Source: a virus. From it: 40,878 nucleotides of DNA. Shown piece after piece: positions 20,718-40,878 of the stretch (position 1 is the first letter of the stretch; every line of letters begins with the position of its first letter). A model generated the notes under the pieces. It was not told where the DNA came from. It did not search any database and worked only from the letters and a program-made list of their open reading frames with translations. The position numbers and the translations under genes were made by a program. The stretch is from UHGV virus genome UHGV-0182401; one strand, written 5' to 3'.

Positions 20718-20720
20718 ACT

Positions 20721-21881: not shown

Positions 21882-21891
21882 GGAGCGATAA

Positions 21892-22332: not shown

Positions 22333-22335
22333 CGC

Positions 22336-22761
22336 ATGGAATTCGAAATTAAAGGCGTGAAATATCGCACCGCAAAGCTCAGCGTTTTCGAACAGCTGAA
22401 GGTGTCCCGCAAGCTGTTGCCGGTGCTGGCCGGGATGGTTTCTGACTTTCGGAGCGTTCAGGAGAAGATCAGCAGCAAAGACACCGAAGGCGCGATGGCT
22501 ACCATCCTGCCAAAGATTGCCAATGCTGTGTCCGATCTGAGCGATGGCGACGTGGACGCTATCCTGTTCCCCTGCCTTTCCGTTGTTTCACGCGAGCACA
22601 TGAAAGGCTGGGTGCCGGTCTGCCAGCATGGCGAAATGGCGTTTGACGATATCGACCTGCTGACCATGCTGCAACTGGTGGCGCGGGTGGTCGCCGACTC
22701 GCTGGGAAATTTTTTGCAAGGACTCCCTACCAGCGAGACGCCCACCCCGCCAGCGGAATAA
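22336..22761 (+). CDS. Tail assembly chaperone (short form)
   Basis: Between tube and tape measure; slippery heptamer TTTTTTG near its 3-prime end. Confidence 0.6.
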   Translation: MEFEIKGVKYRTAKLSVFEQLKVSRKLLPVLAGMVSDFRSVQEKISSKDTEGAMATILPKIANAVSDLSDGDVDAILFPCLSVVSREHMKGWVPVCQHGEMAFDDIDLLTMLQLVARVVADSLGNFLQGLPTSETPTPPAE

Positions 22762-22949
22762 CCTTCAACAGCCTGCCGGGCGGTGAAGATTTTATTCTTC
22801 GTCCGGCGCTTGCCTTCCAGATTGACCAGAAAGACCTTAACAGCGGTGCGGTAGACCTCTGCCGCATCGCGCTTCTCAATGACTACCTCGACATGCGCGA
22901 GGATAACGACGCCCGGGTAGATAAATGGAGAGCGGCCAATGAGCGGTAA
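22710..22949 (+). other. Programmed -1 frameshift site and extended chaperone reading frame (analogous to P2 E/E+E-prime and lambda G/GT)
   Basis: T-TTT-TTG heptamer at 22710-22716 in frame; the -1 frame stays open for about 75 codons to a stop at 22947-22949. Confidence 0.55.
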
Positions 22950-24954: not shown

Positions 24955-25580
24955 TGGATATTTTATCAGCGATTTTTCGCCAGCAATCCCGGCGAATTGG
25001 CCTGCTGATCCCCAGCGTGGTCGTCTCCGAAAAGCATTCTGATGCGCTCGAAATTACTGAGCATCCGGTGGAGAAGCCAACAACGAATAGCGCGTCGGGT
25101 TTCATCGCCGATCATGCGTATAAGCGTCCCAGCGAAGTCACAATGGAATGCGGCTTTGCTGGTGGCGGTTCGTTGCTGGACTTCATCGATACATCTTCAA
25201 TCGGCCTCAGCGCCGGGCTTAGCCCAAAAGAAACATACCAAAAGCTGCTGGATATGCAGCTTGAGCGCGTGCCATTCGATGTGGTTACCGGGAAGAGGGT
25301 GTACACCAATATGCTGGTGCGTGCCATTGAGGTGACGACCGATAAAACCAGCGAGAACGTGCTGAACTGCACGCTTACCCTGCGTGAAGTCATCATAACG
25401 CATACAAAAAATGTCACCGTTGCTGATAAATCCGATATGCAGGACGGGGTTAGTACATCTGCGGTGCAGAATTCCGGGACTAAATCCACCACCCCAGTAA
25501 ATGAATCGGTAATTAAGTCAACAGGGTGGTTTGATGGACTAAAAGGAACCAGTCTTGGTAACTCTATAGGTATCCAATGA
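24954..25580 (+). CDS. Tail protein (P2 gpU-position)
   Basis: Position after tape measure. Confidence 0.45.
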   Translation: MDILSAIFRQQSRRIGLLIPSVVVSEKHSDALEITEHPVEKPTTNSASGFIADHAYKRPSEVTMECGFAGGGSLLDFIDTSSIGLSAGLSPKETYQKLLDMQLERVPFDVVTGKRVYTNMLVRAIEVTTDKTSENVLNCTLTLREVIITHTKNVTVADKSDMQDGVSTSAVQNSGTKSTTPVNESVIKSTGWFDGLKGTSLGNSIGIQ

Positions 25581-25882
25581 ATGTAACTGAAATCCCTTTA
25601 TCGCCGGATAACCAGCTATTTCGCATTCAGTTAGCAGAGACAACATACACGCTGAGAGTCATTTGGCGTGATTCTGCTGGCTGGATTCTGGATGTACAAG
25701 ATAGCAGTGGCGAACCGCTTCTTTCTGGCGTGCCGCTGGTAACCGGTGTAAATCTTCTTGAGCAATATCCTCAACTAGGTATTAACGGGGCGCTGCTCGT
25801 TGGCTGCGATGTAGGCGCACCGGACGAGCCCACCAAAACCAACCTCGGCACATACAGCCACCTCATTTTCGTGCAGGAGTAG
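25577..25882 (+). CDS. Tail protein (P2 gpX-position)
   Basis: ATGA overlap with the upstream gene; position. Confidence 0.45.
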   Translation: MNVTEIPLSPDNQLFRIQLAETTYTLRVIWRDSAGWILDVQDSSGEPLLSGVPLVTGVNLLEQYPQLGINGALLVGCDVGAPDEPTKTNLGTYSHLIFVQE

Positions 25883-25884
25883 AA

Positions 25885-26949
25885 ATGTCTCTTAACTGGA
25901 TGCGCCATTTTGAGTTGCAGCTGTTGGACCAGAACGGGCAGGGTATTTCCCTGTCTGATTTTAAGGTCACGTTCCAGATCGAGTGGGCAGATACACGCTG
26001 GCCGCGCGTGGCAAACGTGAAAATTTACAACCTTTCGACCGATACCACGAACAAGATACTGGGGCAGGAATTTGCCAAAATTCGCATCATTGCCGGGTAT
26101 GACGGTATTGCGCCGGATGTTGATGCGAGCCAGGTTGGTGTCGCCCGGGAGATTTCACCAGACCAGGTAGGGCAGGTGAACGGTCAGAACTACGGCCTGA
26201 TATTTGACGGTGATATTCGCTTCACCGTCACCGGGAAGGACAACATCACCGATTCCTGGGTGCTGATTCAGGCCATCAGTAACCACGAAGCGTTCCTCTA
26301 CGCGACTACCATCACCACGCTTGCCGCTGGTTATACCGTTGCGGACCTGCACCGGGCGACTATGCAGGATTTCAACGCGTTCGGCGTGACGCAGGGCATT
26401 ACCGGTGACTTTCCTGATACCGTGTTTCCTCGTGGCCGTGCGATTTATTCATCCACCCGTAACGTGATGGATAATATTGCTGCGCAGTGCAAAGCGACAT
26501 GGCAGCTGGTGGATGGTCAGGTCCAGATGGTGCCGGAGGATAAATATATTCACGAAGCCATTGTGTTGAATGCCGATACTGGCCTGATCGGTATGCCGCA
26601 ACAAACGATGGGCGGCGGAGTAAACGTGCGGTGCCTGATAAACCCAAACATCCGTATTAATGGTCTTATCCAGCTCGATCAGGCTTCGGTGTACCGCGCT
26701 GCGCTCGGCAATAGCGAAATCGCTCAGTCGCCCGGGCGTATCACCGAAACGGAAGAGAACGGCAACCGCGTGCTGACAGGTACGACGTCACAGGCTGCCA
26801 GCATTGCGACAGATGGCGTTTATATCGTCAAAGCTATCGACTATACTGGCGACACCAGAGGTCAGGCGTGGTACATGGATTTGATGTGTTTTGCGCGTGG
26901 GGCTCGCGAGCTTTACAGCCAGAATGCCATGCTGAAAACCAACTATTGA
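25885..26949 (+). CDS. Tail/baseplate hub protein (P2 gpD-position)
   Basis: 354 aa, position. Confidence 0.5.
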   Translation: MSLNWMRHFELQLLDQNGQGISLSDFKVTFQIEWADTRWPRVANVKIYNLSTDTTNKILGQEFAKIRIIAGYDGIAPDVDASQVGVAREISPDQVGQVNGQNYGLIFDGDIRFTVTGKDNITDSWVLIQAISNHEAFLYATTITTLAAGYTVADLHRATMQDFNAFGVTQGITGDFPDTVFPRGRAIYSSTRNVMDNIAAQCKATWQLVDGQVQMVPEDKYIHEAIVLNADTGLIGMPQQTMGGGVNVRCLINPNIRINGLIQLDQASVYRAALGNSEIAQSPGRITETEENGNRVLTGTTSQAASIATDGVYIVKAIDYTGDTRGQAWYMDLMCFARGARELYSQNAMLKTNY

Positions 26950-26959
26950 GGTGAATATT

Positions 26960-27304
26960 GTGAAGCGTGTAGCAGCCGTAATTTTTCTGCTGACTTCGTT
27001 TTTATCCTTGAGTGCATTTGCTGATTCACAATGTGGTAACTACAGGGTGCACTGGGCGGATGATGGGCTTGCAAGAATTAATGGCGCAAAACCAGAAACT
27101 CAAAAAATCACTTTTCTGAAAAAAGAAGGTGATTATAACAATGTAAAATTTGAGTGGGTTGTTGCTACCGATCAACCCGGTCGCTGGGTGGGAATGGAGT
27201 TCATTGGGCGCAACGGAAAAGCCATTCTCAATGTCCAGTGGCTGCAAGCCAGCATGAATGCGCCGCGTCAGTATGCAACATACGACTGCCGAAAAGTAAA
27301 ATAG
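26960..27304 (+). CDS. Small secreted protein with signal peptide (moron candidate)
   Basis: GTG start after GAGGTGA; signal peptide MKRVAAVIFLLTSFLSLSAFA; inserted between baseplate genes. Confidence 0.5.
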   Translation: MKRVAAVIFLLTSFLSLSAFADSQCGNYRVHWADDGLARINGAKPETQKITFLKKEGDYNNVKFEWVVATDQPGRWVGMEFIGRNGKAILNVQWLQASMNAPRQYATYDCRKVK

Positions 27305-27322
27305 CCCGCCAGATAGGCGGGC
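27304..27322 (-). terminator. Hairpin terminator between convergent genes
   Basis: GCCCGCC-AGATA-GGCGGGC perfect 7-bp stem; T-rich on the minus strand downstream of the 27328..27618 gene. Confidence 0.5.
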
Positions 27323-27327
27323 ATGCG

Positions 27328-27618
27328 TCAAAAATATTGAGCTTTAATTATAATAAACACAATAATTACGAACAGGATGTTTCTAATTATTTTTTGCTTA
27401 TGAGTAAGTTGTTTTTTTTCTGTCGATTTCCCGGGAGAGTAAAGGTTAGTGGTATGCGACAGCCCCGTGCCGGGAAGGCCATTTGTCATCTTTACGCCTT
27501 TTTTCCCGATGTTAATGGTGGAACCTTTACCACCAATTGAAGTGCTTACTCCGCTTTTGCTAATGTTGATCGCGAGTCCGGGCGCAATCCGGATTCTTTT
27601 GCGAAATCTAAAGCCCAT
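27328..27618 (-). CDS. DUF4236-like protein with C-terminal transmembrane segment
   Basis: N-terminal MGFRFRKRIRIAPGLAINISKSGVS...GLPGTGLS pattern matches remembered DUF4236; lies in an AT-rich tract. Confidence 0.55.
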   Translation of the reverse strand: MGFRFRKRIRIAPGLAINISKSGVSTSIGGKGSTINIGKKGVKMTNGLPGTGLSHTTNLYSPGKSTEKKQLTHKQKIIRNILFVIIVFIIIKAQYF

Positions 27619-27805
27619 TTGTTACTCCTGTAGTCAAGAATGCGATGGTGCAGGTCCACTCTATGGCGGCTTCATGGCTGAAATTGATTTTTAATGCTTA
27701 CTTGTTGCAAATATATCCTAATACACCTTGTGAATATGTGCCATTGCAGCGGAAAAGCCTTACTTCACACTGATGTAGCTTAGTTACTAAGAGATAATTG
27801 ATACC

Positions 27806-27829
27806 AAACCAGCTTCGGCTGGTTTTTTT
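27806..27829 (+). terminator. Intrinsic terminator just upstream of the baseplate spike gene
   Basis: AAACCAGC-TTCG-GCTGGTTT followed by TTTTT. Confidence 0.5.
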
Positions 27830-27840
27830 ATGGGGTTTTT

Positions 27841-28581
27841 ATGCCAATTCCTACTCAATCACAGATCGGCGGCGAGCAGCAGACCGCGCAGGCCATTGCC
27901 GATTCGGTGTCTACTCAGATGCGCGTAGCGATGCCTGGCATCATTCAGTCGTTCGATCCTGACGCTGTAACCTGCACAGTAGAGGTGGCGCTTCGCGGTA
28001 TTGTTGGCGACGACTCCACCGAATTAAAACCGCTGGTGGATGTGCCTGTCATCTTCCCGCGCGGAGGCGGTTGCACGCTGACCTTTCCGGTAAAAGAAGG
28101 CGATGAGTGCCTGCTGATCTTTGCCGACCGTTGCATCGATTTCTGGTGGCAGAGCGGCGGCGTTCAGGAGACCGTCGACCCGCGCCAGCATGACTTATCT
28201 GATGCGTTCGCCATCGTTGGCCCGCAGTCGCAAGCGCAAAAAATCAGCGGTATCAGTACCAGCGCCGCGCAGCTGCGAACCGATGATGGTGTGGCGTTCG
28301 TAGAGGTTTCCGCAGGACATAACATCACCGTTCAAACACCGGGCCAGCTCACGGCTACGGCTGAAGGTGGAACGACAATCACATCCCCGACTATCACGCT
28401 GAACGGCAACGTAACGATTAATGGCAATCTGTCTCAGGGAATGGGAGAAAGTGGTGGTACTGCGACGATGCTTGGGCCGGTTACGGTAACGAATGATGTG
28501 ACAGCTTCAGGTATAAGTGTCGCCACGCATAAACATGGCGGAGTTCAGACAGGCGGGGGAACTACTGGAGGGCCGCAATAA
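27841..28581 (+). CDS. Baseplate spike protein (P2 gpV-like)
   Basis: 246 aa with glycine-rich C-terminus; followed by W/J/I-like genes in P2 order. Confidence 0.65.
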   Translation: MPIPTQSQIGGEQQTAQAIADSVSTQMRVAMPGIIQSFDPDAVTCTVEVALRGIVGDDSTELKPLVDVPVIFPRGGGCTLTFPVKEGDECLLIFADRCIDFWWQSGGVQETVDPRQHDLSDAFAIVGPQSQAQKISGISTSAAQLRTDDGVAFVEVSAGHNITVQTPGQLTATAEGGTTITSPTITLNGNVTINGNLSQGMGESGGTATMLGPVTVTNDVTASGISVATHKHGGVQTGGGTTGGPQ

Positions 28582-28934
28582 TGCGATACCGACGAGAAGA
28601 TGCTGACGGCGATTACACTTTCGGGCAAGGTGACGACACCTTCCTTATCGACAGTCCGGAATGTGTCGCCCAGGCCGTAAAAACCCGTTTCGAGCTCTGG
28701 CGCGGTCAGTGGTTTCTCGATCTGACGGAAGGCACGCCGTATGTTCAGTCAGTGCTTGGGAAACAGCGATCAGACGTCTACATCCTGGCTATACGCGAAC
28801 GCATACAGGACACGCCGGGCGTTCTGTCGATTCTTTCCTTCGATACCAATTATGACGGCACCAGCCGCCGCGTCACTTTCACTTCCTCCATTGACACAAT
28901 CTACGGCCAGACGACTGTAACAAGCGAGGCATAA
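28581..28934 (+). CDS. Baseplate protein (P2 gpW-like)
   Basis: 117 aa, position and size. Confidence 0.65.
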   Translation: MRYRREDADGDYTFGQGDDTFLIDSPECVAQAVKTRFELWRGQWFLDLTEGTPYVQSVLGKQRSDVYILAIRERIQDTPGVLSILSFDTNYDGTSRRVTFTSSIDTIYGQTTVTSEA

Positions 28935-30134
28935 ATGGCTTTGAACCTCGACACGCTGGGGCTATCGGCAACGGTAACCGCCCAGGGGATTAGTGCGCCT
29001 GATTACCAGACAATCCTCGATACACTGACCAGCTATTTCAGGCAGATTTACGGTAGTGATGCCTACCTCGAACCAGACAGCAAAGATGGGCAAATGGTCG
29101 CGCTGGTGGCTCTGGCTGTGCATGATGCTAACAATACCGCTATCGAGATCTACAACTCGTTTTCACCGACGACAGCGCAGGCCGCAGCGCTTAGCAGCAA
29201 TGTGAAAATTAACGGGATCACGCGAAAAGTAGCGACAAACTCTACTGCTGACCTTCTGTTAACCGGTACGGCGGGCACGACTATCACGAATGGCTCCGCA
29301 CGGGATAAAAACGGCATTATCTGGAATTTTCCCGCGAGTGTAGCAATCGGGGTTGATGGTACTGTGCTGGTGACGGCCACATGTGCGAATAGCGGTTCGG
29401 TTGCGGCGATGGCCGGGACTATTACCACCATTAACACACCGACTCGCGGCTGGGTGTCGGTAACCAACCCTGCTGCGGCTATTGTCGGTTCACCAGCCGA
29501 AACCGACGCAGAGCTGCGCATTCGGCAGGGGCAAAGCGTCGCGCTACCATCGATCACACCGTTTGAAGGTGTCGACGGTGCAATAGCTAACGTTGCTGGC
29601 GTGACACGTCACAAGCTGTATGAGAACGACACGGGGGCAACCGACAGCAACGGGCTGCCGCCGCACTCAATTTCCGCCATCGTCGATGGTGGGGATGTTA
29701 CCGAAATAGCCCAGACCATCAGGGGGAATAAAGGGCAGGGAACGGCAACCTACGGGACAACTTCTGTCACGGTGCCGGATACTTACGGTAATCCTCACGT
29801 CATCAGTTTTTCACGCTCTACCGATGTGCCAATTTTCGTAGCCATTACCCTGAAAGTTTTTACCGGGTATACCTCTCAAATCGGCGAGCAGATCAAACAG
29901 GCTGTTGCCGACTATATTAACGGCCTGACAATTGGCGACGACGTTCTGCTGAGCCGTATTTATTCCCCGGCAAACCTTGGTGTTGTGAGCGGCGGTAATG
30001 CCCGATATTACGACATTCAGGAGCTGCTCATCGGCAAATCCTCTGACTCAGTCGCAAGCGGAAATATCGATATTGCTTATGACGAATCTGCGTCATGCGT
30101 TGCGAGTCACGTCACTATCACGGTGACCTCATGA
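28935..30134 (+). CDS. Baseplate protein (P2 gpJ-like)
   Basis: 399 aa, position and size. Confidence 0.65.
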   Translation: MALNLDTLGLSATVTAQGISAPDYQTILDTLTSYFRQIYGSDAYLEPDSKDGQMVALVALAVHDANNTAIEIYNSFSPTTAQAAALSSNVKINGITRKVATNSTADLLLTGTAGTTITNGSARDKNGIIWNFPASVAIGVDGTVLVTATCANSGSVAAMAGTITTINTPTRGWVSVTNPAAAIVGSPAETDAELRIRQGQSVALPSITPFEGVDGAIANVAGVTRHKLYENDTGATDSNGLPPHSISAIVDGGDVTEIAQTIRGNKGQGTATYGTTSVTVPDTYGNPHVISFSRSTDVPIFVAITLKVFTGYTSQIGEQIKQAVADYINGLTIGDDVLLSRIYSPANLGVVSGGNARYYDIQELLIGKSSDSVASGNIDIAYDESASCVASHVTITVTS

Positions 30135-30811
30135 GCAAATACACCGAACTGATCACTAACTACCATGCTACCAAGCCACTCTTTTTTGACCATATAGATC
30201 TGAGCACCCGCCCGCTGATTGATGTGTCCAGCACTATGTCAGGGCTTATAACAGCCTTCGATATCGATACTGCTGTCGGTGTACAGCTCGACATCCTCGG
30301 TCTGTGGATCGGACGCAGTCGCATAGTCAGCCAGCCAATTAGCGGAGTTTATTTCAGCTGGGACACTGACGGGCTTGGGTATGACCAGGGCATCTGGCAA
30401 GGGCCATATGATCCTGATTCTGGCTATACGACGCTAAGCGATGAGACGTACCGCATCATTCTGAAAGCGAAAATCGCTATCAACAACTGGGACGGTCGGA
30501 ACGACTCTCTGCCTCCCATCCTTGACGCTGCTACCGCAGGCTCAGGCCTGAGGATGCAGATCGTCGACAACCAGGACATGACGATTTCGGTCTGGGTTTT
30601 CCCTGAAACTGATATTTCTGATGTGTCTCTCGAACTGATCGCCGCTATCAAACAGGGCTATCTCACCGTTAAATCAGCTGGCGTATGGGCCGGTGATGTT
30701 GAAACGCCTTCGGTAGAAACACCGTCAGAAGGCTCTAAATTCTTTGGGTTTGATATGGATAACGAATACATCGGCGGGCTCGATGTTGGAGCATGGGGGA
30801 CTTTACTCTAA
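30131..30811 (+). CDS. Baseplate/tail protein (P2 gpI-like)
   Basis: ATGA overlap with the upstream gene. Confidence 0.6.
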   Translation: MSKYTELITNYHATKPLFFDHIDLSTRPLIDVSSTMSGLITAFDIDTAVGVQLDILGLWIGRSRIVSQPISGVYFSWDTDGLGYDQGIWQGPYDPDSGYTTLSDETYRIILKAKIAINNWDGRNDSLPPILDAATAGSGLRMQIVDNQDMTISVWVFPETDISDVSLELIAAIKQGYLTVKSAGVWAGDVETPSVETPSEGSKFFGFDMDNEYIGGLDVGAWGTLL

Positions 30812-31692
30812 TGGCAACAAATAACTTTAAAGCGTTCGCGCTTGATCCTAACGCTAACGTCATGTCACAGGCAGACTGGGAAGCGCTTCCGGCGCTGCTG
30901 TCTGGTTTTACTGCCGGGAAGGCCTCCAGTGCGCAGGTTAACAAGGCGTTGCGGCAGAGCAGTACCATGGCAGCTGTTATCGCGCAATTCATGGCTGATA
31001 AAACAGGACAGGATGTACTGGATAATGGTAACACCAGCCAATTAGAGGCGATATTTGCCAGTGCAATCCAGGGGCGTCTAATCAATGTCCGTGTGTTTAC
31101 ATCATCCGGGACTTACACGCCAACCAATGGAACAAAGTCGATTATCGTCGAAGTGCAAGGAGGAGGCGGAGGTGGTGGTAATGCCAAGGCCACTTCGTCC
31201 ACCACATATACATTGACCTCATCGGGAGGGGCTGGTGGGTATGCTAAATCCAGACTTACCAATCTTGCCGCCTCTTATTCTGTAACTGTAGGAGCAGGAG
31301 GCGCGGGAGGTGTTTCTGGAGGGCAGTCAGTTTTTGGCTCTATTACATGCGGAGGAGGAGGTGCTGGCAGCCAAATAGGCGGGTCTTATACAGCATCGAG
31401 CAGTGTAGTAACACTTGGCGCATCAGGAGGCGATGCTTCGGGTGGCAATATAGTTAATGTTCCTGGTTCGAGTGCCGATCCGTCACTTTTAATCGCTGGC
31501 GGGGCTGTGTCTGCTGTTGGTGGAAATTCAGTCATCGGTACTGGTGGGAAAGGTGCCGGTTCTTCTTCTGCTACCGGACTTCCTGGAACACTAGGCGGCG
31601 GTGGTGGTGGTGCTAATGCCGCTGGAAATACTACGTTAATTGCTGGCGGTAAAGGCGGTGACGGTATTGTTATAATTTGGGAGTTTGCATGA
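30811..31692 (+). CDS. Tail fibre protein with glycine-rich repeats
   Basis: Long Gly/Ser/Ala-rich repeat tracts (GGGGGGNAK..., TLGGGGGGANAAG...). Confidence 0.65.
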   Translation: MATNNFKAFALDPNANVMSQADWEALPALLSGFTAGKASSAQVNKALRQSSTMAAVIAQFMADKTGQDVLDNGNTSQLEAIFASAIQGRLINVRVFTSSGTYTPTNGTKSIIVEVQGGGGGGGNAKATSSTTYTLTSSGGAGGYAKSRLTNLAASYSVTVGAGGAGGVSGGQSVFGSITCGGGGAGSQIGGSYTASSSVVTLGASGGDASGGNIVNVPGSSADPSLLIAGGAVSAVGGNSVIGTGGKGAGSSSATGLPGTLGGGGGGANAAGNTTLIAGGKGGDGIVIIWEFA

Positions 31693-32087
31693 TGGCTATT
31701 TACGCATTAGTTAAAGACGGCGTTGTAGAAAACACAGTCATCTGGGATGGGGGAGGTGATTTGTTTCCTGACTACCAGGCGGTTGAACTGAACGAAAATG
31801 AAACCGCTGGTCCGGGATGGACTTATGACGGAACTGAGTTCTATCCTCCAGTTGAACCGGAAAAGAGCCATGAAGAGTTGGTGGTTGAGGCTGAGCAGCA
31901 GAAAGAAGCTTTATTGTCAGAGGCGCAGACAACGATAAGCCTTTGGCAAACTGAACTGCAACTTGGCATCATCAGCGACGAAGATAAGGCAAGTCTGATC
32001 GCGTGGGTTCAGTACATCAAAGCCCTTAAGGCGGTCGACACGTCGAAAGCTCCGGATATCACCTGGCCTGTGCCACCAGCGACTTAA
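31689..32087 (+). CDS. Tail fibre assembly chaperone
   Basis: Small gene immediately after the fibre gene with ATGA overlap. Confidence 0.6.
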   Translation: MMAIYALVKDGVVENTVIWDGGGDLFPDYQAVELNENETAGPGWTYDGTEFYPPVEPEKSHEELVVEAEQQKEALLSEAQTTISLWQTELQLGIISDEDKASLIAWVQYIKALKAVDTSKAPDITWPVPPAT

Positions 32088-32225
32088 TTTCATTTTGGCG
32101 ATGTGCCATATTTGTGTCATACGTGGTAAATCGCCTTTCACTATCTTGCGTCATGTGCCATTGAGTTATGCAATGTGAATGCGGCAATGTACATGTAAAA
32201 CAGTTAGTTAAAAGTGATTCTACTA

Positions 32226-32271
32226 ATTCGTAATGCGAAGGTCGTAGGTTCGACTCCTATTATCGGCACCA
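32226..32271 (+). other. Phage attachment core: 3-prime 46 nt of tRNA-Thr (thrW-like), anticodon loop to CCA
   Basis: ATTCGTAATGCGAAGGTCGTAGGTTCGACTCCTATTATCGGCACCA matches the remembered 3-prime part of E. coli thrW; 14 nt from the integrase stop. Confidence 0.7.
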
Positions 32272-32285
32272 CTAACCACGCGGGT

Positions 32286-33449
32286 TCACGCGATATTCAC
32301 CAGTTCAGCAAAAGCGCCTTGTGCCATATTTGTGCCATTCCCCGCCAGAAATGAGTCGATTTGCATGGCATGCTGCGTCAGGTGATTCGGTGCCAGATGG
32401 GCATAACGCTGTACCATCTCGATACTTTCCCACCCGCCCATTTCCTGTAGCGCACTGAGTGGCACGCCGGACTGTACAAGCCAGCTTGCCCAGGTGTGCC
32501 GCAGGTCATGGAAGCGGAAATTTTCTATTCCCGCCCGCCTTAACGCTGCTCGCCATGCCGTGTTAGCATCAGACCGCATTTTGCGCACTGCCTTTGTTCT
32601 CGTTCCATCCGGGCGAACGGATGATTCAGTGTGAACAAAGACCCACCGGTTATGTTTCCCCAGCTGCTCCCGCAGCACCTTACAGGCCGATTCGTTCAGG
32701 GCGACCCCAATCGCCCTTCCTGCTTTCGCGTCCTCGGGGTGAATCCACGCGACCTTCCTCTGCATATCAATTTGTGACCACTCCAGATCGGTGATGTTCG
32801 ACCTGCGCAGCCCCGTCGCCAGTGCAAAAATAACAACTGGCTTCATATGCTCGGGAAGTTCCCGGATCAGGTTCGCCGCTTCCTCTTTGGTTAGCCAGCG
32901 AATACGCTTATTTTTCGGCACCGGGCATTTGATGTTCGGCGCCTTGGCTATCCATCGCCATTCGTTGGCCGCACATCGTAACAGCGCCCGGATGAAAGCA
33001 AGGTGCGTCGCCTTCGTCGCCAGCGACGCTGGTTTATCCTTAAATTCAGGAACCGGCTTACCTCTTCGCAGCAGGCTGTCCCGTTTCGCCTCCCAGTTCA
33101 TTCGATGTTTGCGATTAACCATCGAACTCACCGCCGACAAGATCCTGTCTTCCGTGATTGCTGACAGGTCCATTCCTTTGAAGTGCATTCTCCAGAATCC
33201 GATCCGGCTTTTGTCATCGTCCAGGCTTTTCTTGTGCTGCTTTTCGTTAAGCCAGCGAACGCACGCTTCATCGAACGTTCTCGGCTTAAACTCACCCATC
33301 TTATCAACTCGCCATGCTTCAGCTTTCAGCTGATCATAGAGCTCCTGCGCTTGCCTTTTGTCCGTTGTCCCAAGAGACCGTCTAATTCGACTTCCACCAG
33401 GCGTAACGAAGTCGCAGTGCCACGTACCGGCACGTTGTTTGATTGACAT
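32286..33449 (-). CDS. int: Tyrosine integrase
   Basis: 387 aa; N-terminus resembles remembered P22 Int; C-terminal HDLRHTWAS...Y catalytic region. Confidence 0.9.
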
Positions 33450-33673
33450 GCTTTAACCTCCTGCACATCAACCGCATTCACCGCGCTATTGTGTCTCACA
33501 GACTTAAGCGCCGCAATGCAGTCTGACTTGCAAATGCGATATGGGCTTTTAGGTTTATCTGGATTTATCTTTGCGGCCTGAAGTCGTCCACTTCGTATCC
33601 ACTGCGTGATAGTGCCTTTGTCTACCTTCAGATACGATGCTGCCTCTTCACGAGTGAAGATTTCTTCTTCCAC
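33326..33673 (-). CDS. xis: Excisionase-like helix-turn-helix protein
   Basis: [22 protein letters not shown] helix-turn-helix; directly upstream of and overlapping int. Confidence 0.55.
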
Positions 33674-33760
33674 TTGGAATCTCCATTTATTGAGTTGGTA
33701 TTATTGCGGTAGGTCTGGATATCTTGAGAAATGAACAGGCCTCATCGAGTGTGAGGCGGG

Positions 33761-34105
33761 TTAGTCCTTGCGTAGCTCGCTAATTCTTCTGTAAGTCTCT
33801 GGTGCTTTGTTTCCGTGTATCTTCATTTCAGACTTCAACAGAGCAACGAGGGAATCCCATTCGTTGAGGATGCCTTTGAATGCCGGAACGCGCTTTGCAA
33901 CCTTGTTGAATGAATCTCTGATTTCTGGAATCTGCTCAACAAGTGCAACGCATCGCCGAAAGTCTGCTGCGTCATGGGGAGCACCGAAGTAATGACCATA
34001 GATATTCTTTTTCAGTCCACATGCGATTGAGGCAAGAGTTGCGCTACTGATGCCAACATCGCCAGTCGATTGCCATTTCAAAACCTTCATAGCCAAATCT
34101 GACAT
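33761..34105 (-). CDS. Hypothetical protein (114 aa)
   Basis: Start placed at the internal ATG (MSDLAMK) because the track start codon lies inside a terminator hairpin; GGAGACAAG upstream. Confidence 0.5.
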   Translation of the reverse strand: MSDLAMKVLKWQSTGDVGISSATLASIACGLKKNIYGHYFGAPHDAADFRRCVALVEQIPEIRDSFNKVAKRVPAFKGILNEWDSLVALLKSEMKIHGNKAPETYRRISELRKD

Positions 34106-34116
34106 TTCTTGTCTCC

Positions 34117-34140
34117 AATAAAAAACCGCCATCAGGCGGC
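34117..34140 (-). terminator. Intrinsic terminator within the leftward early operon
   Basis: CCGCC-loop-GGCGG hairpin followed by TTTTTTATT on the minus strand, directly upstream of the next start codon. Confidence 0.5.
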
Positions 34141-34205
34141 TTGGTGTTCTTTCAGTTATTCAATTCGAATATTGGTTACATTGTTTTCATATATGAATAA
34201 ATAAA

Positions 34206-34385
34206 TTAGCTTTTTTCGTTGCCTTCGCTTTCTTTATTAATTTTAACAAACTCGTTTTTACCACGCTCTCCAAATGCGTCTTTAGAGTCGTTGTATCCGC
34301 AATCGCAGCACACATAATCTCCAGACCATCCACGCATTGTTTTTTCTTTTGCAATATTTCCAGAACCGCATTTTGGACAAGACAT
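34206..34385 (-). CDS. Small zinc-ribbon protein (59 aa)
   Basis: CPKCGSG...CCDCGYND, two CxxC pairs; GGAGG ribosome-binding site. Confidence 0.5.
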   Translation of the reverse strand: MSCPKCGSGNIAKEKTMRGWSGDYVCCDCGYNDSKDAFGERGKNEFVKINKESEGNEKS

Positions 34386-34481
34386 ATCACTACCTCCAAA
34401 GCATGAGTGAGATGACAACGTAACATTGATTGGAGATTAACAATAGATTGCTGATGTAAAAGATATGTATAAGCTTCGCTT

Positions 34482-35048
34482 TCAAAGTGGAGGCTCTGGT
34501 AGCGGCATCCAGTGAGTTACGTCATCCAAGATATTTCCTGATAAATACGTGAAAGCTCTATATTTTTTGTAATCAATTGGATTTACAACCCAGTTCCAAT
34601 ATGCGGCCACGATTTCACCTTGACTAAATGCCAGTAACATTTTGGTTTCTTCCGGCATTCGCTCACTACAGCTTATCCAACCATCCGGAGTTACCGGAGA
34701 GTTGCCCGATAGCTCGTTCAACTTGTAAGTTTGGCTTACGAGTTCGGCTTCCAGTTCTGCTATGCGCTTTTTTGCTGCTTCCAGCTCGCCAAGCAGCGCC
34801 AAGACGGTAGCCGGATTGGCTGCAGCGATGAATTCAGCATTGGCCTGCTGTTCCATTTGGAAATCTTCATCGAAACCGCTTTCAGGATGCGCTCCTTCAA
34901 TTCTGCAAATGGGAAGATATCCAACAACGTCACGATGAATTAGCGCATCATCACAATCAAATCGGCTCTCTCCATATTCGAGCGACCACACCCCACACGT
35001 TGCTTTCTCTGCCGCTTCACGCAGTGCCTGATAGTCAATCTTGCTCAT
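34482..35048 (-). CDS. Ead/Ea22-like protein with C-terminal DUF551-like region
   Basis: 188 aa; C-terminal WISCSERMPEE...THWMPLPEPP resembles DUF551. Confidence 0.55.
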   Translation of the reverse strand: MSKIDYQALREAAEKATCGVWSLEYGESRFDCDDALIHRDVVGYLPICRIEGAHPESGFDEDFQMEQQANAEFIAAANPATVLALLGELEAAKKRIAELEAELVSQTYKLNELSGNSPVTPDGWISCSERMPEETKMLLAFSQGEIVAAYWNWVVNPIDYKKYRAFTYLSGNILDDVTHWMPLPEPPL

Positions 35049-35049
35049 G

Positions 35050-35349
35050 TCACATCACCCTGAATCCGTTGCATTTACGTAAGAAATCGCAGATATAGCC
35101 CTTCATTTTTTCATGCCAATCTCGATCATTCCCATTGCACCACCCATCAGGTGGAGTCCAGTTTTCTATCAGAGCAGCCATTTTCTTTGCTTTCGCCGGA
35201 GTAGCTGTTGCGGTATCGCAGTAATGACGAGTGTCAACAAACTTATCCATGCCATCGATATCAAGTACGCAAAACCATGTGTGATTCGGAATTCCTACAG
35301 GTGGTATTTGTTGCCCACGTCGGCGTTTATCAATGAGATATACACTCAC
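35050..35349 (-). CDS. Hypothetical protein (99 aa)
   Basis: Translationally coupled to its neighbours on both sides. Confidence 0.45.
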   Translation of the reverse strand: MSVYLIDKRRRGQQIPPVGIPNHTWFCVLDIDGMDKFVDTRHYCDTATATPAKAKKMAALIENWTPPDGWCNGNDRDWHEKMKGYICDFLRKCNGFRVM

Positions 35350-35795
35350 TGGTTACCTCCTTTGCGAAGCTCTGCGGCGAACTCGTTAAGTGATATGTAG
35401 CAATCTCCAAATGTTAACGAACCGCTCGACTGCATATGCTCCATAGCCATCTCCACGCCCTGCGCCCGTACTTCAGCCAGGAAAGCATCGGTGGCTGGGG
35501 TTTCAGTAACATCATCTTCCCATTCGCTAAACTCCTCACGACAAAAGTCATTAAATTCCTTCTCAGATTGCTTAAGCGAGGTATTTTCAGCAGCCATCTT
35601 CGCGCATTTAGCCTCAAGGTTATCAATCGTGATTCCAGCAGAACGACACTCCCGCAACGCCGTTTCTAGTTTTGATTCAAGTTCACCGAACTTACGCACC
35701 AGATATTCAGCGTTTGTTTCGTTAACCTTTAAATCTCGGGGGATGCATTTACCTTTCAGAAAACCATCCATCTCAATTAGTGACATTTGTTTCAT
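35346..35795 (-). CDS. Hypothetical protein (about 149 aa)
   Basis: Start chosen at the ATG after GGAG; the track start is a GTG 18 nt upstream. Confidence 0.45.
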   Translation of the reverse strand: MKQMSLIEMDGFLKGKCIPRDLKVNETNAEYLVRKFGELESKLETALRECRSAGITIDNLEAKCAKMAAENTSLKQSEKEFNDFCREEFSEWEDDVTETPATDAFLAEVRAQGVEMAMEHMQSSGSLTFGDCYISLNEFAAELRKGGNQ

Positions 35796-35951
35796 TTCTT
35801 CCCACTCCGCCACATTGCATTCAGATATTTGTTGTCATTAACAGAACCGAAATATTTCTCTTAAGCAATTCCTCTCTCGATGGCATTGGCTTTACGCGTT
35901 GGCGAATAATCATTTCTGCCGGAAGAATGCCGGGATTGTATGCAAGTCCTC

Positions 35952-36242
35952 TCATGATTTACTCTCCACGAACTGGTCAACGGCCATGCTAAGTGACACA
36001 CCTAAAGTATCGATATGCTGCTGAATATCCTGTAGCGTCCGCGCTTGAGATAACAGAATTTCACGGTTGCATAACTCTTTAACCAGATGCTCAAACTTGC
36101 TGTAATAACCGATACGGCTTAGTGTTTCTTTCCCTGCATTCTCACCTTCTTTGATAATTCCTCTTTCGCTAAGAATCAGGTCGTGTTTGGTTCCGGTAAT
36201 AACGTATTTGCCGAGGTCGATGTTTAGCTTCATTGTTTTCAT
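35952..36242 (-). CDS. Hypothetical protein (97 aa)
   Basis: Start at ATG ([10 protein letters not shown]) after GAGGA; the track ORF extends upstream from a TTG into the preceding gene. Confidence 0.45.
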
Positions 36243-36252
36243 TGTTAATTCC

Positions 36253-36549
36253 TCAGTCATTACTGATAGCGCCATAGCGTGAGCGGTAATTACGCAGGCG
36301 CGGGTCGATATATTCAGGGAAGTGGGTATATGTGGCTTTGCGGAATGGTCGGATTGATGTCTGGTAAATTCGCTCTCGTTCTTCTTTCTCTGCAAGCCAT
36401 ATACAGTGGCGAAATTCCTTTTCTTCTTTCGTTTCCTGCGGTAGCGACATTATCCGGTCGTAGTTTTTCCTGAATTTATCCAGCACCTCCGATACGGAAT
36501 TGCCGGAACAGCGGCGCGCGTCGTCCGCACCATACAGAGGCGCTGGCAT
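36253..36549 (-). CDS. Hypothetical protein (98 aa)
   Basis: ORF with ATG start; first gene after ssb in the leftward operon. Confidence 0.45.
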   Translation of the reverse strand: MPAPLYGADDARRCSGNSVSEVLDKFRKNYDRIMSLPQETKEEKEFRHCIWLAEKEERERIYQTSIRPFRKATYTHFPEYIDPRLRNYRSRYGAISND

Positions 36550-36562
36550 GATTTTCTCCTGA

Positions 36563-37078
36563 TTAAATTGCGTGAATAGCGTGACGAGGGAAGGGGAGGG
36601 TTACTGGCGCAAAAGGTATATCGTCGTCAAACTCCATAGGTGGTTCGCTGTGATTTACCTGCTTCTGAGGCTGCTGTTTTTGTTGCTGACCGTTATTTCG
36701 CTGAGGTGAAGACTGTTCATTGCTTCCTTGCTTGCCACCAAGCATTTGCATGGTTCCACCAACGCCCACGATAACTTCGGTAGTGAACCGATCCTGTCCG
36801 CTTTGATCCTGCCATTTTCTTGTCCGCAATTTTCCTTCAAGATAAACCTCAGAGCCTTTTCGCAGATATTCGCTGGCAATTTCTGCCAGTTTCCCGCTCA
36901 TTACCACACGGTGCCACTCCGTCTGCTCCTTTTGCTCTCCAGTTTGCTTATCACGCCATTGTTCTGACGTAGCAACTATAAGGTTTGCAAATGCCGTTCC
37001 TGATGGTGAATATCTGATTTCTGGATCATGCCCAAGGCGACCAATAATGATCACCTTATTTACGCCTCTACTTCCCAT
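36563..37078 (-). CDS. ssb: Single-stranded DNA-binding protein, with a 15-aa extension beyond the canonical DDDIPF tail
   Basis: OB-fold N-terminus typical of SSB and acidic [11 protein letters not shown] near the C-terminus, followed in frame by [15 protein letters not shown] before the stop. Confidence 0.85.
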
Positions 37079-37786
37079 TTATGCCGCCTGTTTTAGTTCG
37101 TTAACTCTGATGTTCATTACCTGAACGCATTTAGCCTGCGCATCCTCATTGCCAGCCATTAATTGCCAGTCATGCTGATAACGTTCTATGAGTTTTTTCT
37201 TGTCAGTTTCTGTTGATGCATAATCGCTGAAGTCTTTCAGGATTTGTTCGCAGTCAACCGATGGAGATTTCTGGTTGGTATTTTCTGGTGATGGTTTGTT
37301 ATCTGATGCTGGGATTGCCCAGCCCGGCAGCGATGGAGGGAGCCAGTAAAATCCTGTTCCATCCTTCAGTTTTGCCCTGTGCCACCCCTGTTTTTTATCG
37401 GGAGATGTTTGTGCGAAACCTTCCTCAAGGTTATACAGATACCGACCGATTCCCCACTGAACGGCAGCGCGCTTCATTGCACCGGAACGACCACCTTTGA
37501 CGGCTTCTACCTGCGTGTTTTCAGCAGCATCCCATTTGGTTACCCATTCGGAATCAATCTTTATTGATATGCCGCATTCAACGCCGCCGTTGTTGGGAAT
37601 ATCGCGGTATTCATTGCGCCATCCTGCTTTGCCACAAACATCGTCAAGGCGTTTCATGATTGCCCGGTTCGTAACATAAGCCAGCACCATAGCCCACACC
37701 TTGCCATCGCGTGTTTTACCGCTTTGCTGTATTCGCCATTCGATATCTTCAGGGCAGAATGGCTCATCGAATTTGTTCAAATCCAT
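37079..37786 (-). CDS. Single-strand annealing recombinase (Rad52/Sak-like)
   Basis: GAMKRAAVQWGIGRYLY motif typical of Rad52-like annealing proteins; paired with ssb. Confidence 0.65.
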   Translation of the reverse strand: MDLNKFDEPFCPEDIEWRIQQSGKTRDGKVWAMVLAYVTNRAIMKRLDDVCGKAGWRNEYRDIPNNGGVECGISIKIDSEWVTKWDAAENTQVEAVKGGRSGAMKRAAVQWGIGRYLYNLEEGFAQTSPDKKQGWHRAKLKDGTGFYWLPPSLPGWAIPASDNKPSPENTNQKSPSVDCEQILKDFSDYASTETDKKKLIERYQHDWQLMAGNEDAQAKCVQVMNIRVNELKQAA

Positions 37787-37873
37787 AATTCACCTCAGAA
37801 TGGACATGGCCCAAGGAAATAACGCTGGTTTAATACTTCGACTCGGGACAAATTAAGGCATACCCGCATTCCT

Positions 37874-38044
37874 TCGCGGTCACCATTATGGCGATACCAG
37901 AGAGCTTTCTGCGTGTACATGCGTCTCTGTAACTTGCTCTCCTTCACTGTGGTTGCAAGTGACATGAATATCTCCTTCGTTACCGATTAATTCTTTCATC
38001 TGACGAATGAATTCTTCGTCTGACCAGTTATCTGTAAAACTCAT
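37874..38044 (-). CDS. Small hypothetical protein (56 aa), coupled to the kil-like gene
   Basis: ATGA overlap with the kil-like stop. An alternative 58-aa ORF in another frame with an AAGGAG site overlaps it, so the frame choice is uncertain. Confidence 0.3.
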
Positions 38045-38193
38045 TTCCTGCGATACCACGGAATGTTGATCGCTGATTTCATCGCTTTATTTGCTTCAAG
38101 CCACATTTTGGAATCACCAATAAATCTGGCTATTACTGCTTTGTTCTGTGCAGCACGAAGCATCTGGTGATTGATGGCTATTTCATTGCGCAT
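38041..38193 (-). CDS. kil: Kil-like small protein (50 aa)
   Basis: GGAGG ribosome-binding site; FIGDSKMW resembles my (uncertain) recollection of lambda Kil; position between cIII-like gene and the recombination genes matches lambda order. Confidence 0.45.
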   Translation of the reverse strand: MRNEIAINHQMLRAAQNKAVIARFIGDSKMWLEANKAMKSAINIPWYRRK

Positions 38194-38312
38194 AACGCCT
38201 CCAGTTGTTTCTTTGCTGCTCTGATTAATTGTTTAACTCGGCGTGATAATTCAGATTCGTGCGGGTAGAAAGCGGACATGACGCCGCTACCCGCGAGCTG
38301 AAAGTGCATCAT
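38178..38312 (-). CDS. cIII: CIII-like small protein (44 aa)
   Basis: AAGGAG site; ESELSRRVKQLIRAAKKQL resembles the lambda CIII central helix. Below the ORF-track cutoff. Confidence 0.5.
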   Translation of the reverse strand: MMHFQLAGSGVMSAFYPHESELSRRVKQLIRAAKKQLEALCAMK

Positions 38313-38395
38313 GGGTAACTCCTTATATTTGATTGCATAACGAAAACGCCTCGAGTGAAGCGTTATTGGTATGCGGTAAAGCCGCGCTCAGGCGG

Positions 38396-38644
38396 CTACT
38401 CTATTTCTTCTTCGAATGATTTTATTAGTCGGTCAATAACATCATCCGTTTCAATATCATTTCCGTCTGATTGCTTTAATACATCTATTGATTCTGCAGC
38501 GGTAAATTCCATCGCTGTGAGAAACTCGACAATTGCACACTCAACGACATATCGTTCTTCATCTGTACGACATGAGATAAAAGAGCATTTAATTGCTGTT
38601 ATTACTTTTTGTTTAAGCTCTGCAGGGTAATCAGTTTTTATCAT
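38396..38644 (-). CDS. Small acidic hypothetical protein (82 aa)
   Basis: ORF with GGAG site, preceded by a terminator hairpin. Confidence 0.45.
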   Translation of the reverse strand: MIKTDYPAELKQKVITAIKCSFISCRTDEERYVVECAIVEFLTAMEFTAAESIDVLKQSDGNDIETDDVIDRLIKSFEEEIE

Positions 38645-38657
38645 CGTTTACTCCGTC

Positions 38658-38686
38658 AAAAAAATTGCCCTCACATTAGAGGGCAA
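38658..38686 (-). terminator. Intrinsic terminator within the leftward early operon
   Basis: TTGCCCTC-ACATTA-GAGGGCAA hairpin followed by TTTTTTT on the minus strand, directly upstream of a gene start. Confidence 0.5.
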
Positions 38687-39050
38687 AGAAGATTTCCAAT
38701 AATCAGAACAAGTCGGCTCCTGTTTAGTTACGAGCGACATTGCTCCGTGTATTCACTCGTTGGAATGAATACACAGTGCTGTGTTTATTCTGTTATTTAT
38801 GCCAAAAATAAAGGCCACTATCAGGCAGCTTTGTTGTTCTATTAACCAAGTTCTCTGGCAATCATTGCCGTCGTTCGTATTGCCCACACCATTGATTCTT
38901 ATCAATAGTCGTAGTCATACGGATAGTCCTGGTATTGTTCCATCACATCCTGCGGATGCTCTTCGAACTCTTCAAATTCTTCTTCCATATCTCACCTCAA
39001 ATAAGTGGTTTGCTGCCAAAACAATGAACCATCCGGAAATTCCAGATAGT

Positions 39051-39278
39051 TCATAATTCACTCTTCAATACTTCCAACTTACTAATCGCCGATAGATATC
39101 CGCGCTGATAGGGCATCATCATTCCTTCGAGCTTGCCACTTCTTAACTCCTCCCTGAGCAATTGTATTGCTTGATCAATAACCTCTGCCTTAGCGTCCTT
39201 TATGGCTTGCTTGCGGGGCTTTGCTTTCTGCTTTGGCAGATTTCTCAAGCATGATGGAATGTATGTCTGATTCATCAC
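39051..39278 (-). CDS. Hypothetical early protein (75 aa)
   Basis: Immediately downstream of the N-like gene. Confidence 0.45.
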   Translation of the reverse strand: MMNQTYIPSCLRNLPKQKAKPRKQAIKDAKAEVIDQAIQLLREELRSGKLEGMMMPYQRGYLSAISKLEVLKSEL

Positions 39279-39551
39279 TTACCTGGCTGTCAGTTGTTTT
39301 GATTTCCGGTAGCCTGCCGAGTAAATGGCTACGTTTGGCAGGCAAATACTTCCACTGCATTCTTCTGCCTTCTTGCAGCGAAGGCTTCCTAGTGATGCTG
39401 CTTTATCTGCTCTGACGCAACCAGAGAGCTTTAGCGCAATTTTTCGTGACAATCGCTGTTCTTGCATTGCCTGTTCACGTTGAGCCTGTCTGCGTGCTCT
39501 GCGGCGATTTCTGGCGTTATCGTCAGCCAGATATGTAATGACTACTGTCAT
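39279..39551 (-). CDS. N: N-like transcription antiterminator (P22 gp24-like)
   Basis: Arginine-rich motif NARNRRRARRQAQREQ; C-terminus YSAGYRKSKQLTAR resembles remembered P22 gp24; first gene after pL and nutL. Confidence 0.75.
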   Translation of the reverse strand: MTVVITYLADDNARNRRRARRQAQREQAMQEQRLSRKIALKLSGCVRADKAASLGSLRCKKAEECSGSICLPNVAIYSAGYRKSKQLTAR

Positions 39552-39657
39552 GTTGACCTCCGATGATTGACTTTGGCGGTGACGCGCCGGGTGCTTATCT
39601 TCCGGTTGCCGTCGTGCAGCTGCACTTCACGTCACCCCAAAGCCAACTACTCTTTGG

Positions 39658-39700
39658 TTCCCGCATTTCGGCGGGACAATCCCATCAATGTTAAAGAGCC
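39658..39700 (-). promoter_or_regulatory. nutL: boxA (GCTCTTTAACA) plus boxB hairpin
   Basis: On the minus strand, boxA at 39689-39699 followed 11 nt later by the same TCCCGCCGAAATGCGGGA hairpin seen in nutR. Confidence 0.6.
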
Positions 39701-39745
39701 TGCCAATCTGTTCCGTTTGGCTACCAGCTTCCTGCTGATGGCTAG

Positions 39746-39774
39746 ATAATCACAAATTGTGGTCGTACTGTCAA
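39746..39774 (-). promoter_or_regulatory. Candidate pL promoter (TTGACA-N17-GATTAT) with overlapping operator-like palindrome
   Basis: Consensus -35 and reasonable -10 on the minus strand; palindrome CACAAATTGTG at 39751-39761 in the spacer. Confidence 0.45.
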
Positions 39775-39846
39775 CACGAAATGTGATTGTTTTTATCACA
39801 ACCCGTGTTTACATTGATTTTAAAGGTAATTTAATTTTCTTTGGGC

Positions 39847-39871
39847 AACAAAAAACCCGCCGAAGCGGGTT
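39847..39871 (-). terminator. Intrinsic terminator downstream of cI
   Basis: AACCCGC-CGAA-GCGGGTT hairpin followed by a T-run on the minus strand, about 25 nt after the cI stop. Confidence 0.55.
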
Positions 39872-39895
39872 TGATGTTTTTAAGTGGCGGGTATA

Positions 39896-40537
39896 TCAGG
39901 AGAATTTCATCATCATCTGCACTGCTACGCCGATTATCTTGCAGTTGCCGTCGATTGGGATCAACGGATAGGCAGGGTTAAGCCCTTTCAGGTATTTGTT
40001 ACCGCCATCAATGATTAGCTTCTTGAACGTGGCTTCATTAGCATCTGTCAGCTTCGCAACTACCAGGCTTCCATTAACGGCTTCCTTTCCAGTGTCGAAC
40101 AGAACCAGCATACCCTCAGGAACGCTAAGGCCGGTAGGAGCTGTCATTGAGTCGCCCTGAACCCTGAGCCAGAAGGCGTCACCGACAACGTGACAATCTG
40201 ATTCATACCACTCATCCACTGCCTGAGGGTTGTACGGCTCTACGGCCTCACTCCATGCACCTGCGCTAACCCAGCTAATCAACGGAAACTTTTCCCCTGG
40301 CTTGTATTGTCCCTGATAGTTGTCGCCAAAAAGCAGTTCTGCCGGAGCGACACCCAAAGCTTTAGCTATTACCTCTGCGTCATCAACACTAACGCTTCTG
40401 GTTCCTGATTCATAGTTGCCGATCCGAGATTGTGAAGCCCAGCCGCAAAGCTCCGCAAGAGCCTTCTGTGTAAGCCCTTTATCTTCCCGTAATCGCTTGA
40501 TACGCGCGGCGATAGTTTCTGTTCTGTTCATGCGCAT
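39896..40537 (-). CDS. cI: CI-type repressor (helix-turn-helix plus LexA-like S24 autocleavage domain)
   Basis: 213 aa; C-terminal domain PLISWVSAG...VQGDSMTAP...CKIIGV closely resembles remembered P22 C2; divergent from cro. Confidence 0.9.
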   Translation of the reverse strand: MRMNRTETIAARIKRLREDKGLTQKALAELCGWASQSRIGNYESGTRSVSVDDAEVIAKALGVAPAELLFGDNYQGQYKPGEKFPLISWVSAGAWSEAVEPYNPQAVDEWYESDCHVVGDAFWLRVQGDSMTAPTGLSVPEGMLVLFDTGKEAVNGSLVVAKLTDANEATFKKLIIDGGNKYLKGLNPAYPLIPIDGNCKIIGVAVQMMMKFS

Positions 40538-40579
40538 TTTATATCACATTCCGTGGTTTAAGGCTTTACACGATTTGTG

Positions 40580-40608
40580 TTGACTATCAATCACAATGTG
40601 TGTTTAAT
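40580..40608 (+). promoter_or_regulatory. Candidate pR promoter (TTGACT-N17-TTTAAT) with operator-like palindromes
   Basis: In the cI-cro intergenic region; ACACGATTTGTGT and TCACAATGTGTG nearby. Confidence 0.45.
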
Positions 40609-40641
40609 AAAGACTGAGTGAACTAGCTCTTAAGGAAACCT

Positions 40642-40857
40642 ATGAACAACATTGCCAACGAACGGAAAAAGCTTGGCATCACTCAATCTGCGTTAGCAGG
40701 CGCGTGTGGCTGGAACCAGTCCCGCTTAGCTAACTACGAGTCAGGTATCCGGACTCCAGATTTAGAGTCGTGCCGTAGCCTGGTAAAGGCGCTGAATAAA
40801 TTGGGGAGCAAGACAACGCTAGATGGCTTGTTCCCGCCGCGTAAGAACGCCGCATAA
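40642..40857 (+). CDS. cro: Cro-like helix-turn-helix regulator
   Basis: 71 aa XRE-type helix-turn-helix (LGITQSALAGACGWNQSRLANYESG), divergent from cI. Confidence 0.7.
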   Translation: MNNIANERKKLGITQSALAGACGWNQSRLANYESGIRTPDLESCRSLVKALNKLGSKTTLDGLFPPRKNAA

Positions 40858-40863
40858 GCAAAT

Positions 40864-40875
40864 TGCTCTTTAACA
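40864..40875 (+). promoter_or_regulatory. nutR boxA (TGCTCTTTAACA)
   Basis: Matches the rrn-type boxA consensus as remembered; its boxB partner is at positions 11-30. Confidence 0.55.
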
Positions 40876-40878
40876 GTC

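Follow-up and report, generated by a model that had tools for sequence, protein, structure and literature searches.

The right end of the window (the whole 40,878-nt stretch of DNA that was analysed) carries genes for an N antiterminator, a cI repressor and Cro, and its left end carries cII. Two nut sites accompany these genes, and one of them, nutR, is divided between the two ends. The features of this control region are listed below.

39279-39551, minus strand: N antiterminator, 90 aa, matching PF25694 (N_peptide) at an E value of 2.3e-15 and bearing the arginine-rich motif NARNRRRARRQAQREQ close to the N terminus
39676-39659, minus strand: boxB of nutL, TCCCGCCGAAATGCGGGA, with the same 18-base core as in nutR and a 12-nt spacer to boxA
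39700-39689, minus strand: boxA of nutL, GGCTCTTTAACA, 100% identical to the annotated nutL of phage HK620
39746-39774, minus strand: putative pL (TTGACA, 17 nt, GATTAT), called by a promoter scanner on the copy in phage ECP1, at a position that agrees with the pL annotation of HK620
39896-40537, minus strand: cI repressor, 213 aa, with HTH and Peptidase_S24 domains
40580-40608, plus strand: putative pR (TTGACT, 17 nt, TTTAAT), read from the sequence by analogy with HK620 and lambda
40642-40857, plus strand: Cro, 71 aa, HTH_3
40864-40875, plus strand: boxA of nutR, TGCTCTTTAACA, identical to the annotated HK620 nutR from GCTCTTTAACA onward
40876-40878, plus strand: GTC, the first 3 nt of the 14-nt nutR spacer, which continues at 1-11
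1-11, plus strand: remainder of the nutR spacer, ATGGTCCTCAT, beginning with the ATG (position 1) of an over-long cII call
11-30, plus strand: boxB hairpin of nutR, TTCCCGCCGAAATGCGGGAA, with its 18-base core at 12-29
36-53, plus strand: hairpin GCGCAT-AAGTTG-ATGCGC just past nutR, in the region annotated as tR1 in HK620
1-366, plus strand: over-long ORF of 121 aa, in frame with cII and used by automatic gene callers
88-366, plus strand: cII, 92 aa, matching PF05269 at an E value of 1.2e-42 (profile positions 1-91 of 91 on residues 1-91)
540-1439: ORF of 299 aa in the position of O; an identical protein is placed after cII elsewhere

Both sites are built as nut sites are expected to be. Each has a boxA with the consensus GCTCTT(T)A on the transcribed strand and a GC-rich hairpin 3' of it on the same strand, 14 nt away at nutR and 12 nt away at nutL; there are two copies, one between pL and N and the other between cro and tR1/cII, each oriented with its own operon. 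The putative pL lies about 45 nt upstream of nutL, and the gene for N, with its N-terminal arginine-rich motif, just downstream of nutL, where a cognate N would be expected. The positions of the genes and promoters thus give the layout pL-nutL-N leftward and pR-cro-nutR-cII rightward, as in lambda; the putative pR was absent from the list returned by a consensus promoter scanner. The window contains exactly two copies of the 11-base boxA core GCTCTTTAACA, at 40865-40875 (plus) and 39699-39689 (minus), for a chance expectation of 0.59 matches with up to one mismatch, and the palindromic 18-base boxB core likewise has exactly two copies (0.03 expected by chance with up to three mismatches; two copies in none of 100 shuffles). 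RNA folding returns the boxB stem-loop as the predicted minimum-energy structure at both sites, with a 7-bp stem (UUCCCGC/GCGGGAA) and a loop CGAAAU at nutR. Its folding energy is not exceptional relative to shuffled sequences (z of -1.7 and -0.7), and the case for boxB therefore rests on duplication, position and homology. When the joined region, in its ECP1 copy, was compared with Rfam, no relevant family came up and the only two matches were at chance level; Rfam holds no nut family.

An earlier, sequence-only reading of this DNA had proposed that nutR is split across the ends of the window and that nutL on the minus strand has the same boxA and an identical boxB core. The division of nutR is as proposed, with boxA at the end of the window and boxB close to its start (the window opens with ATGGTCCTCA, followed by the hairpin), and the 18 bases of the boxB core are indeed identical in the two sites. 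The boxA does lie near the end of the window, but it stops 3 nt short of it instead of filling the last bases, and the two boxA elements share their 11-base core but begin with different bases, T at nutR and G at nutL. The comparison of layouts that the same reading had suggested as a check gave the same strand order in the joined nutR (boxA, 14 nt, boxB) and in nutL (boxA, 12 nt, boxB).

The closest annotated counterpart of this region is in HK620 (AF335538), where positions 9423-9468 carry the label 'nutR; putative N-utilization rightward' and are followed by tR1; both nut sites are labelled 'putative' there. The joined window matches the HK620 sequence at 113 of 114 nt from GCTCTTTAACA through boxB to the start of cII, nutL is identical, N is 97% identical, and pL, N, cro, tR1 and cII are arranged around the sites in the same way in both phages. 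Judged by these matches, positions 40864-40878 together with 1-30 are a lambdoid nutR, the same element as that annotated in HK620. The two phages differ in the first base of the nutR boxA (C in HK620, T in the window), in the cI-cro immunity region, which the window has in common with phage ECP1 instead, and in the virion, HK620 being a P22-like podovirus whereas the phage of the window has sheath and baseplate genes. The similarity to HK620 ends right at boxA, and in related loci the same GCTCTTTAACA follows nine different cro 3' ends, which points to a mosaic joint at the edge of nutR, 0-1 nt upstream of the boxA core (40855-40865).

The two ends of the window are physically contiguous, as the earlier reading had supposed. 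A look-up of exact protein matches to the ORF at 1-366 led to a contig from a JGI metagenome, Ga0495776_008131 (L132 in our collection; 40,977 nt), whose positions 1-8706 equal window 32173-40878 and whose positions 8707-19072 equal window 1-10366, at 100% identity and without a gap; its other end corresponds to window 18935-32271. We checked that the last 99 nt of this contig repeat its first 99 nt, and the non-redundant unit is thus 40,878 nt, the length of the window. A SPAdes contig from another sample (NODE_448 of ERZ1742070, 40,933 nt) matches at 100% identity wherever it was read, has a 55-nt overlap of its end with its start, also checked, and is broken at window 25772. Stretches of 100% identity are also carried by scaffold_476 of ERZ28567694 (40,933 nt) and k119_19209 of ERZ27239493 (40,997 nt), whose lengths equal 40,878 + 55 and 40,878 + 119, respectively, by arithmetic. 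The break points differ among the four assemblies. Phage ECP1 is contiguous across the join as well (100% over 200 nt, 99.66% over 5,050 nt), the join is unbroken in prophages of three E. coli chromosomes (99-99.6% over 486 nt), and an exact 44-mer spanning it is present in at least 119 IMG/VR contigs. Cro at the end of the window is therefore followed by cII at its start, in keeping with the sequence-only reading, and the gap of 108 nt between the two genes in the joined window is matched in ten of ten further contigs encoding this Cro. No terminal repeat is present in the window itself, and megablast of half-windows against the phage collection and complete E. coli genomes gave no identical genome, the best matches being mosaics with 42% and 75% coverage. 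Among the exact-protein look-ups, those with the Dit-like protein, O, N and the 313-aa protein, all of them widespread, led to other phages and prophages only, and the tail-fibre ORF gave no match, probably owing to a different called start.

The point at which the circle was opened is explained by gene calling. The TAA stop of cro is in frame with window position 1 and lies 21 nt before it, and the first start codon past this stop is the ATG at position 1. That ATG also begins the 121-aa product, which is on record in exactly this form in 52 blocks of the collection, the JGI contig included, indicating that the window was opened at a called gene start. We place the true start of cII at 88, since the CII profile fits the 92-aa protein from end to end, the PGAP calls in ECP1 and E. 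coli also give 92 aa, and an AAGGA at 74-78 has its last base nine nucleotides 5' of the ATG at 88. The split of nutR between the ends of the window is thus a bookkeeping effect, and the nutR, nutL and N found here are of a kind already known and annotated.

The gene content is that of a whole phage. An HNH nuclease gene stands with TerS, TerL, portal, protease and capsid genes, the tail is represented by sheath, tube, tape measure, baseplate and fibre genes and a tail-fibre assembly gene, and replication by the ORF in the position of O and a DnaB-like helicase; Q, lysis genes, int and recombination genes are present in addition to N, cI, cro and cII. The attachment region consists of two features:

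32226-32271, plus strand: attP core, corresponding exactly to the 3'-terminal 46 nt of a tRNA-Thr, between the tail-fibre assembly gene and int
32286-33449, minus strand: integrase, 387 aa, PF00589, which adjoins tRNA-Thr in E. coli lysogens

Similarity to the E. coli lysogens begins at 32226 and runs into int. An attP that is intact and internal indicates the excised form of the phage, not a prophage. The prophage of E. coli I3 is collinear with the window, with 35448-38886 mapping just before 243-30957, and the order of its left and right arms is that predicted by rotation of the circle. The 99-nt repeat of the JGI contig (window 32173-32271) ends exactly at the last base of the attP core; a branch of the assembly graph at 32271 is what one would expect from a JGI sample that contained the phage in both integrated and excised form. 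Two further segments stood out in the gene map. Between Q (5475-5996) and the holin gene (8864-9187), an interval that is the stx slot of Stx phages, positions 6437-8599 hold a three-gene block that recurs in many E. coli prophages and encodes a faintly MptE-like protein, a 313-aa protein without a family and a Methyltransf_23 protein. Within the plus-strand baseplate operon, a DUF4236 ORF on the minus strand (27328-27618) is a moron-like insert, conserved in related contigs.

The sequence-only reading had called the window a circularly permuted genome, and this term holds for the record, which is a rotated linearisation of a circular assembly. In its stronger sense, that headful packaging makes the DNA in the virion permuted and terminally redundant, it has in our estimation somewhat less than an even chance of being right. 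Close relatives have a Mu F-like head morphogenesis gene after the portal gene (PF04233, PF06381), a pairing that is common among headful packagers, and circular assemblies are compatible with this mode of packaging, but such assemblies are equally expected from cos phages and from excised circles. TerL has no Pfam match, the cut point is accounted for by a gene-call start and not by packaging, and the HNH nuclease gene adjoins terS as it does in some cos phages, though it is missing in close relatives. This last gene (11151-11648) lies directly upstream of terS, and close relatives that share the terminase (L173 and L177) do not have it, for which reason it probably encodes a mobile homing nuclease rather than a packaging cofactor.

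The assignment of the hairpin at 11-30 as the boxB of an N protein gains from its distribution. Among the IMG/VR contigs with enough upstream sequence, which differ in their immunity regions, all 99 loci with a nutR of this boxB type carry the boxB once more, and only once, in inverted orientation 1,127-3,373 nt upstream; boxB shows no variation across the collected loci, which were chosen by exact match. Wherever a simple ORF picker found the N gene in these loci, the N terminus of its product, MTVVITYLADDNARNRRRARRQAQREQ, is nearly invariant, while the C-terminal third falls into at least three types across phages (P22-like, lambda-like and a third). The I3 prophage has structural genes in common with the window, but its N is lambda N and its boxB is that of lambda at both sites, GCCCTGAAAAAGGGC at nutR and GCCCTGAAGAAGGGC at nutL, from which it follows that the type of boxB switches with the type of N. 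Such a switch is predicted by the rule that the arginine-rich motif recognises boxB, which is established for lambda, P22 and H-19B (for example PMC3526286 and PMC8022706). The boxB of this class is co-inherited with the N terminus of N. A GC-rich hairpin right behind a gene could in principle be something else, such as a terminator of cro or a palindrome bound by a protein on the DNA, and its 6-nt loop CGAAAU departs both from the 5-nt lambda loop (GAAAA or GAAGA, as read in a relative) and from that of P22, GACAA. We consider this very unlikely. No run of T follows the hairpin and a terminator scan of the ECP1 copy did not report it, an identical copy stands 12 nt past a second boxA between pL and N, the hairpin is always accompanied by one and the same N-terminal motif of N whatever the immunity region, and lambda boxB takes its place at both sites when N is of the lambda type.

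The hairpin is thus best read as boxB, and the N protein that would bind it is modular, a constant N-terminal segment with a putative role in RNA binding being combined in different phages with at least three unrelated C-terminal ends. The N of the window has 97% identity to phage 21 N over residues 34-64, 57% to P22 gp24 over residues 47-90 and 87% to the N of Stx phages over residues 67-90, but its residues 1-33 match none of these three. Gp24 of P22, phage 21 N and H-19B N all belong to the same Pfam family (N_peptide) as the N of the window. The motif of H-19B N is RSRRRER (PMC3526286). Given the unmatched residues 1-33, and by the logic used for phage epsilon34 (PMC2629481), the boxB specificity of the window phage is expected to differ from those of the P22, phage 21 and H-19B systems.

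The comparison with lambda follows similar lines. The architecture is the same, boxA being followed by a short spacer and boxB, with one site after cro and the other between pL and N, and lambda N also has an N-terminal arginine-rich motif, but this reads MDAQTRRRERRAEKQAQW in lambda and DDNARNRRRARRQAQREQ here; a lambda-like C-terminal end of N is found in some loci with the N-terminal motif of the window type. The lambda-type boxB is GCCCU-GAAAA/GAAGA-AGGGC and that of the window CCCGC-CGAAAU-GCGGG, the lambda-type spacers are 9 nt (nutR) and 7 nt (nutL) in the sites read as opposed to 12-14 nt in the window, and in place of the lambda boxA, GCTCTTA, the window has the longer, rrn-like GCTCTTTAACA. 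The full boxA of nutR, TGCTCTTTAACA, matches the P22 and rrn form. It is conceivable, though rather doubtful, that the motif DDNARNRRRARRQAQREQ and the 6-nt loop CGAAAU, a GAAA flanked by unpaired C and U, make up a mode of recognition distinct from those of lambda, P22 and phage 21; a genuine GNRA tetraloop, closed by a mismatch of C and U, might for example stand in place of a pentaloop with an extruded base. A search of solved structures with the N sequence gave no match even at an E value of 10, and our literature search found no experimental study of the HK620-type N/boxB class. This class is common, at least 119 IMG/VR contigs having its boxB and nutR.

By homology with lambda, P22 and H-19B, nutR and nutL would be carried on the pR and pL transcripts, respectively, where the arginine-rich N terminus of N would bind the boxB hairpin and NusB and NusE (S10) would bind boxA. 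Together with NusA and NusG, these proteins would render RNA polymerase resistant to termination, allowing read-through of tR1 into cII-O-P-Q on the rightward side and into the recombination genes on the leftward side. For the nut sites of the window we infer both the binding of protein to RNA and the resulting antitermination.

Other RNA structures lie close to the nut sites. The hairpin at 36-53 shows a compensatory change of G-C to A-U in two related loci and G-U wobble variants in about 20, a pattern suggesting that RNA structure is conserved in the tR1 region. Folding also predicts a 10-bp long-range pairing (z of -3.5) of 40867-40876 in boxA (UCUUUAACAG) with 69-78 in the ribosome-binding region of cII (UUGUUAAGGA). 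We set this pairing aside as probably incidental, since about 22 of 150 loci have a T-to-A change that disrupts the helix and is not compensated, and boxA resembles an anti-Shine-Dalgarno sequence in any case. At 39853-39872, between the pL/operator region and the end of cI, there is a perfect, bidirectional terminator-like hairpin (AAACCCGCCGAAGCGGGTTT) with a T run on either strand, located where HK620 has tIMM.

Returning to the molecule as a whole, an overlap equal to the k-mer size shows only that an assembly graph has closed on itself, and the circularity might on that ground be an artefact of a false repeat join or of a tandem or concatemeric template, with no real unit of 40,878 bp behind it. 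We regard the probability of this as very small. One and the same unit length was obtained from four samples with three values of k and four break points (two of the overlaps by arithmetic), the join gives the normal cro-nutR-cII order of independent phages and prophages with the 108-nt gap kept, and the gene set is complete and non-redundant. That the window is instead a fragment of a larger molecule, a prophage or a longer contig whose half-sites are not adjacent and only resemble a split nutR by coincidence, draws on nothing more specific than the generality that most lambdoid database sequences are prophages and retains practically no probability, being already refuted by the 100% contiguity of Ga0495776_008131 over the join, by independent assemblies with lengths equal to that of the window plus k, by the lack of bacterial genes in the window and by an attP that is intact and internal where prophage copies break at 32226.

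The contiguous ends, the unit length common to independent assemblies, the full gene set and the intact attP all agree with the claim of the earlier reading that the window is a whole genome, and the two observations that would have spoken against it, ends lying apart or bacterial flanking sequence, were looked for: the ends are contiguous elsewhere and bacterial genes are absent. We are highly confident that the window represents a temperate lambdoid phage with a contractile tail, whose circular genome of 40,878 bp is given in full and was linearised inside the nutR spacer at the over-long cII start, and that its nutR is the HK620 element. The nut/N system is textbook knowledge and this version of it is already annotated in HK620. 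The practical value of the result is small. The over-long call is a recurrent annotation error, in which cII is called 29 codons early, through the nutR spacer and boxB. As the genome is circular and all 40,878 bp of it are in the window, features near either end are to be read across the join.
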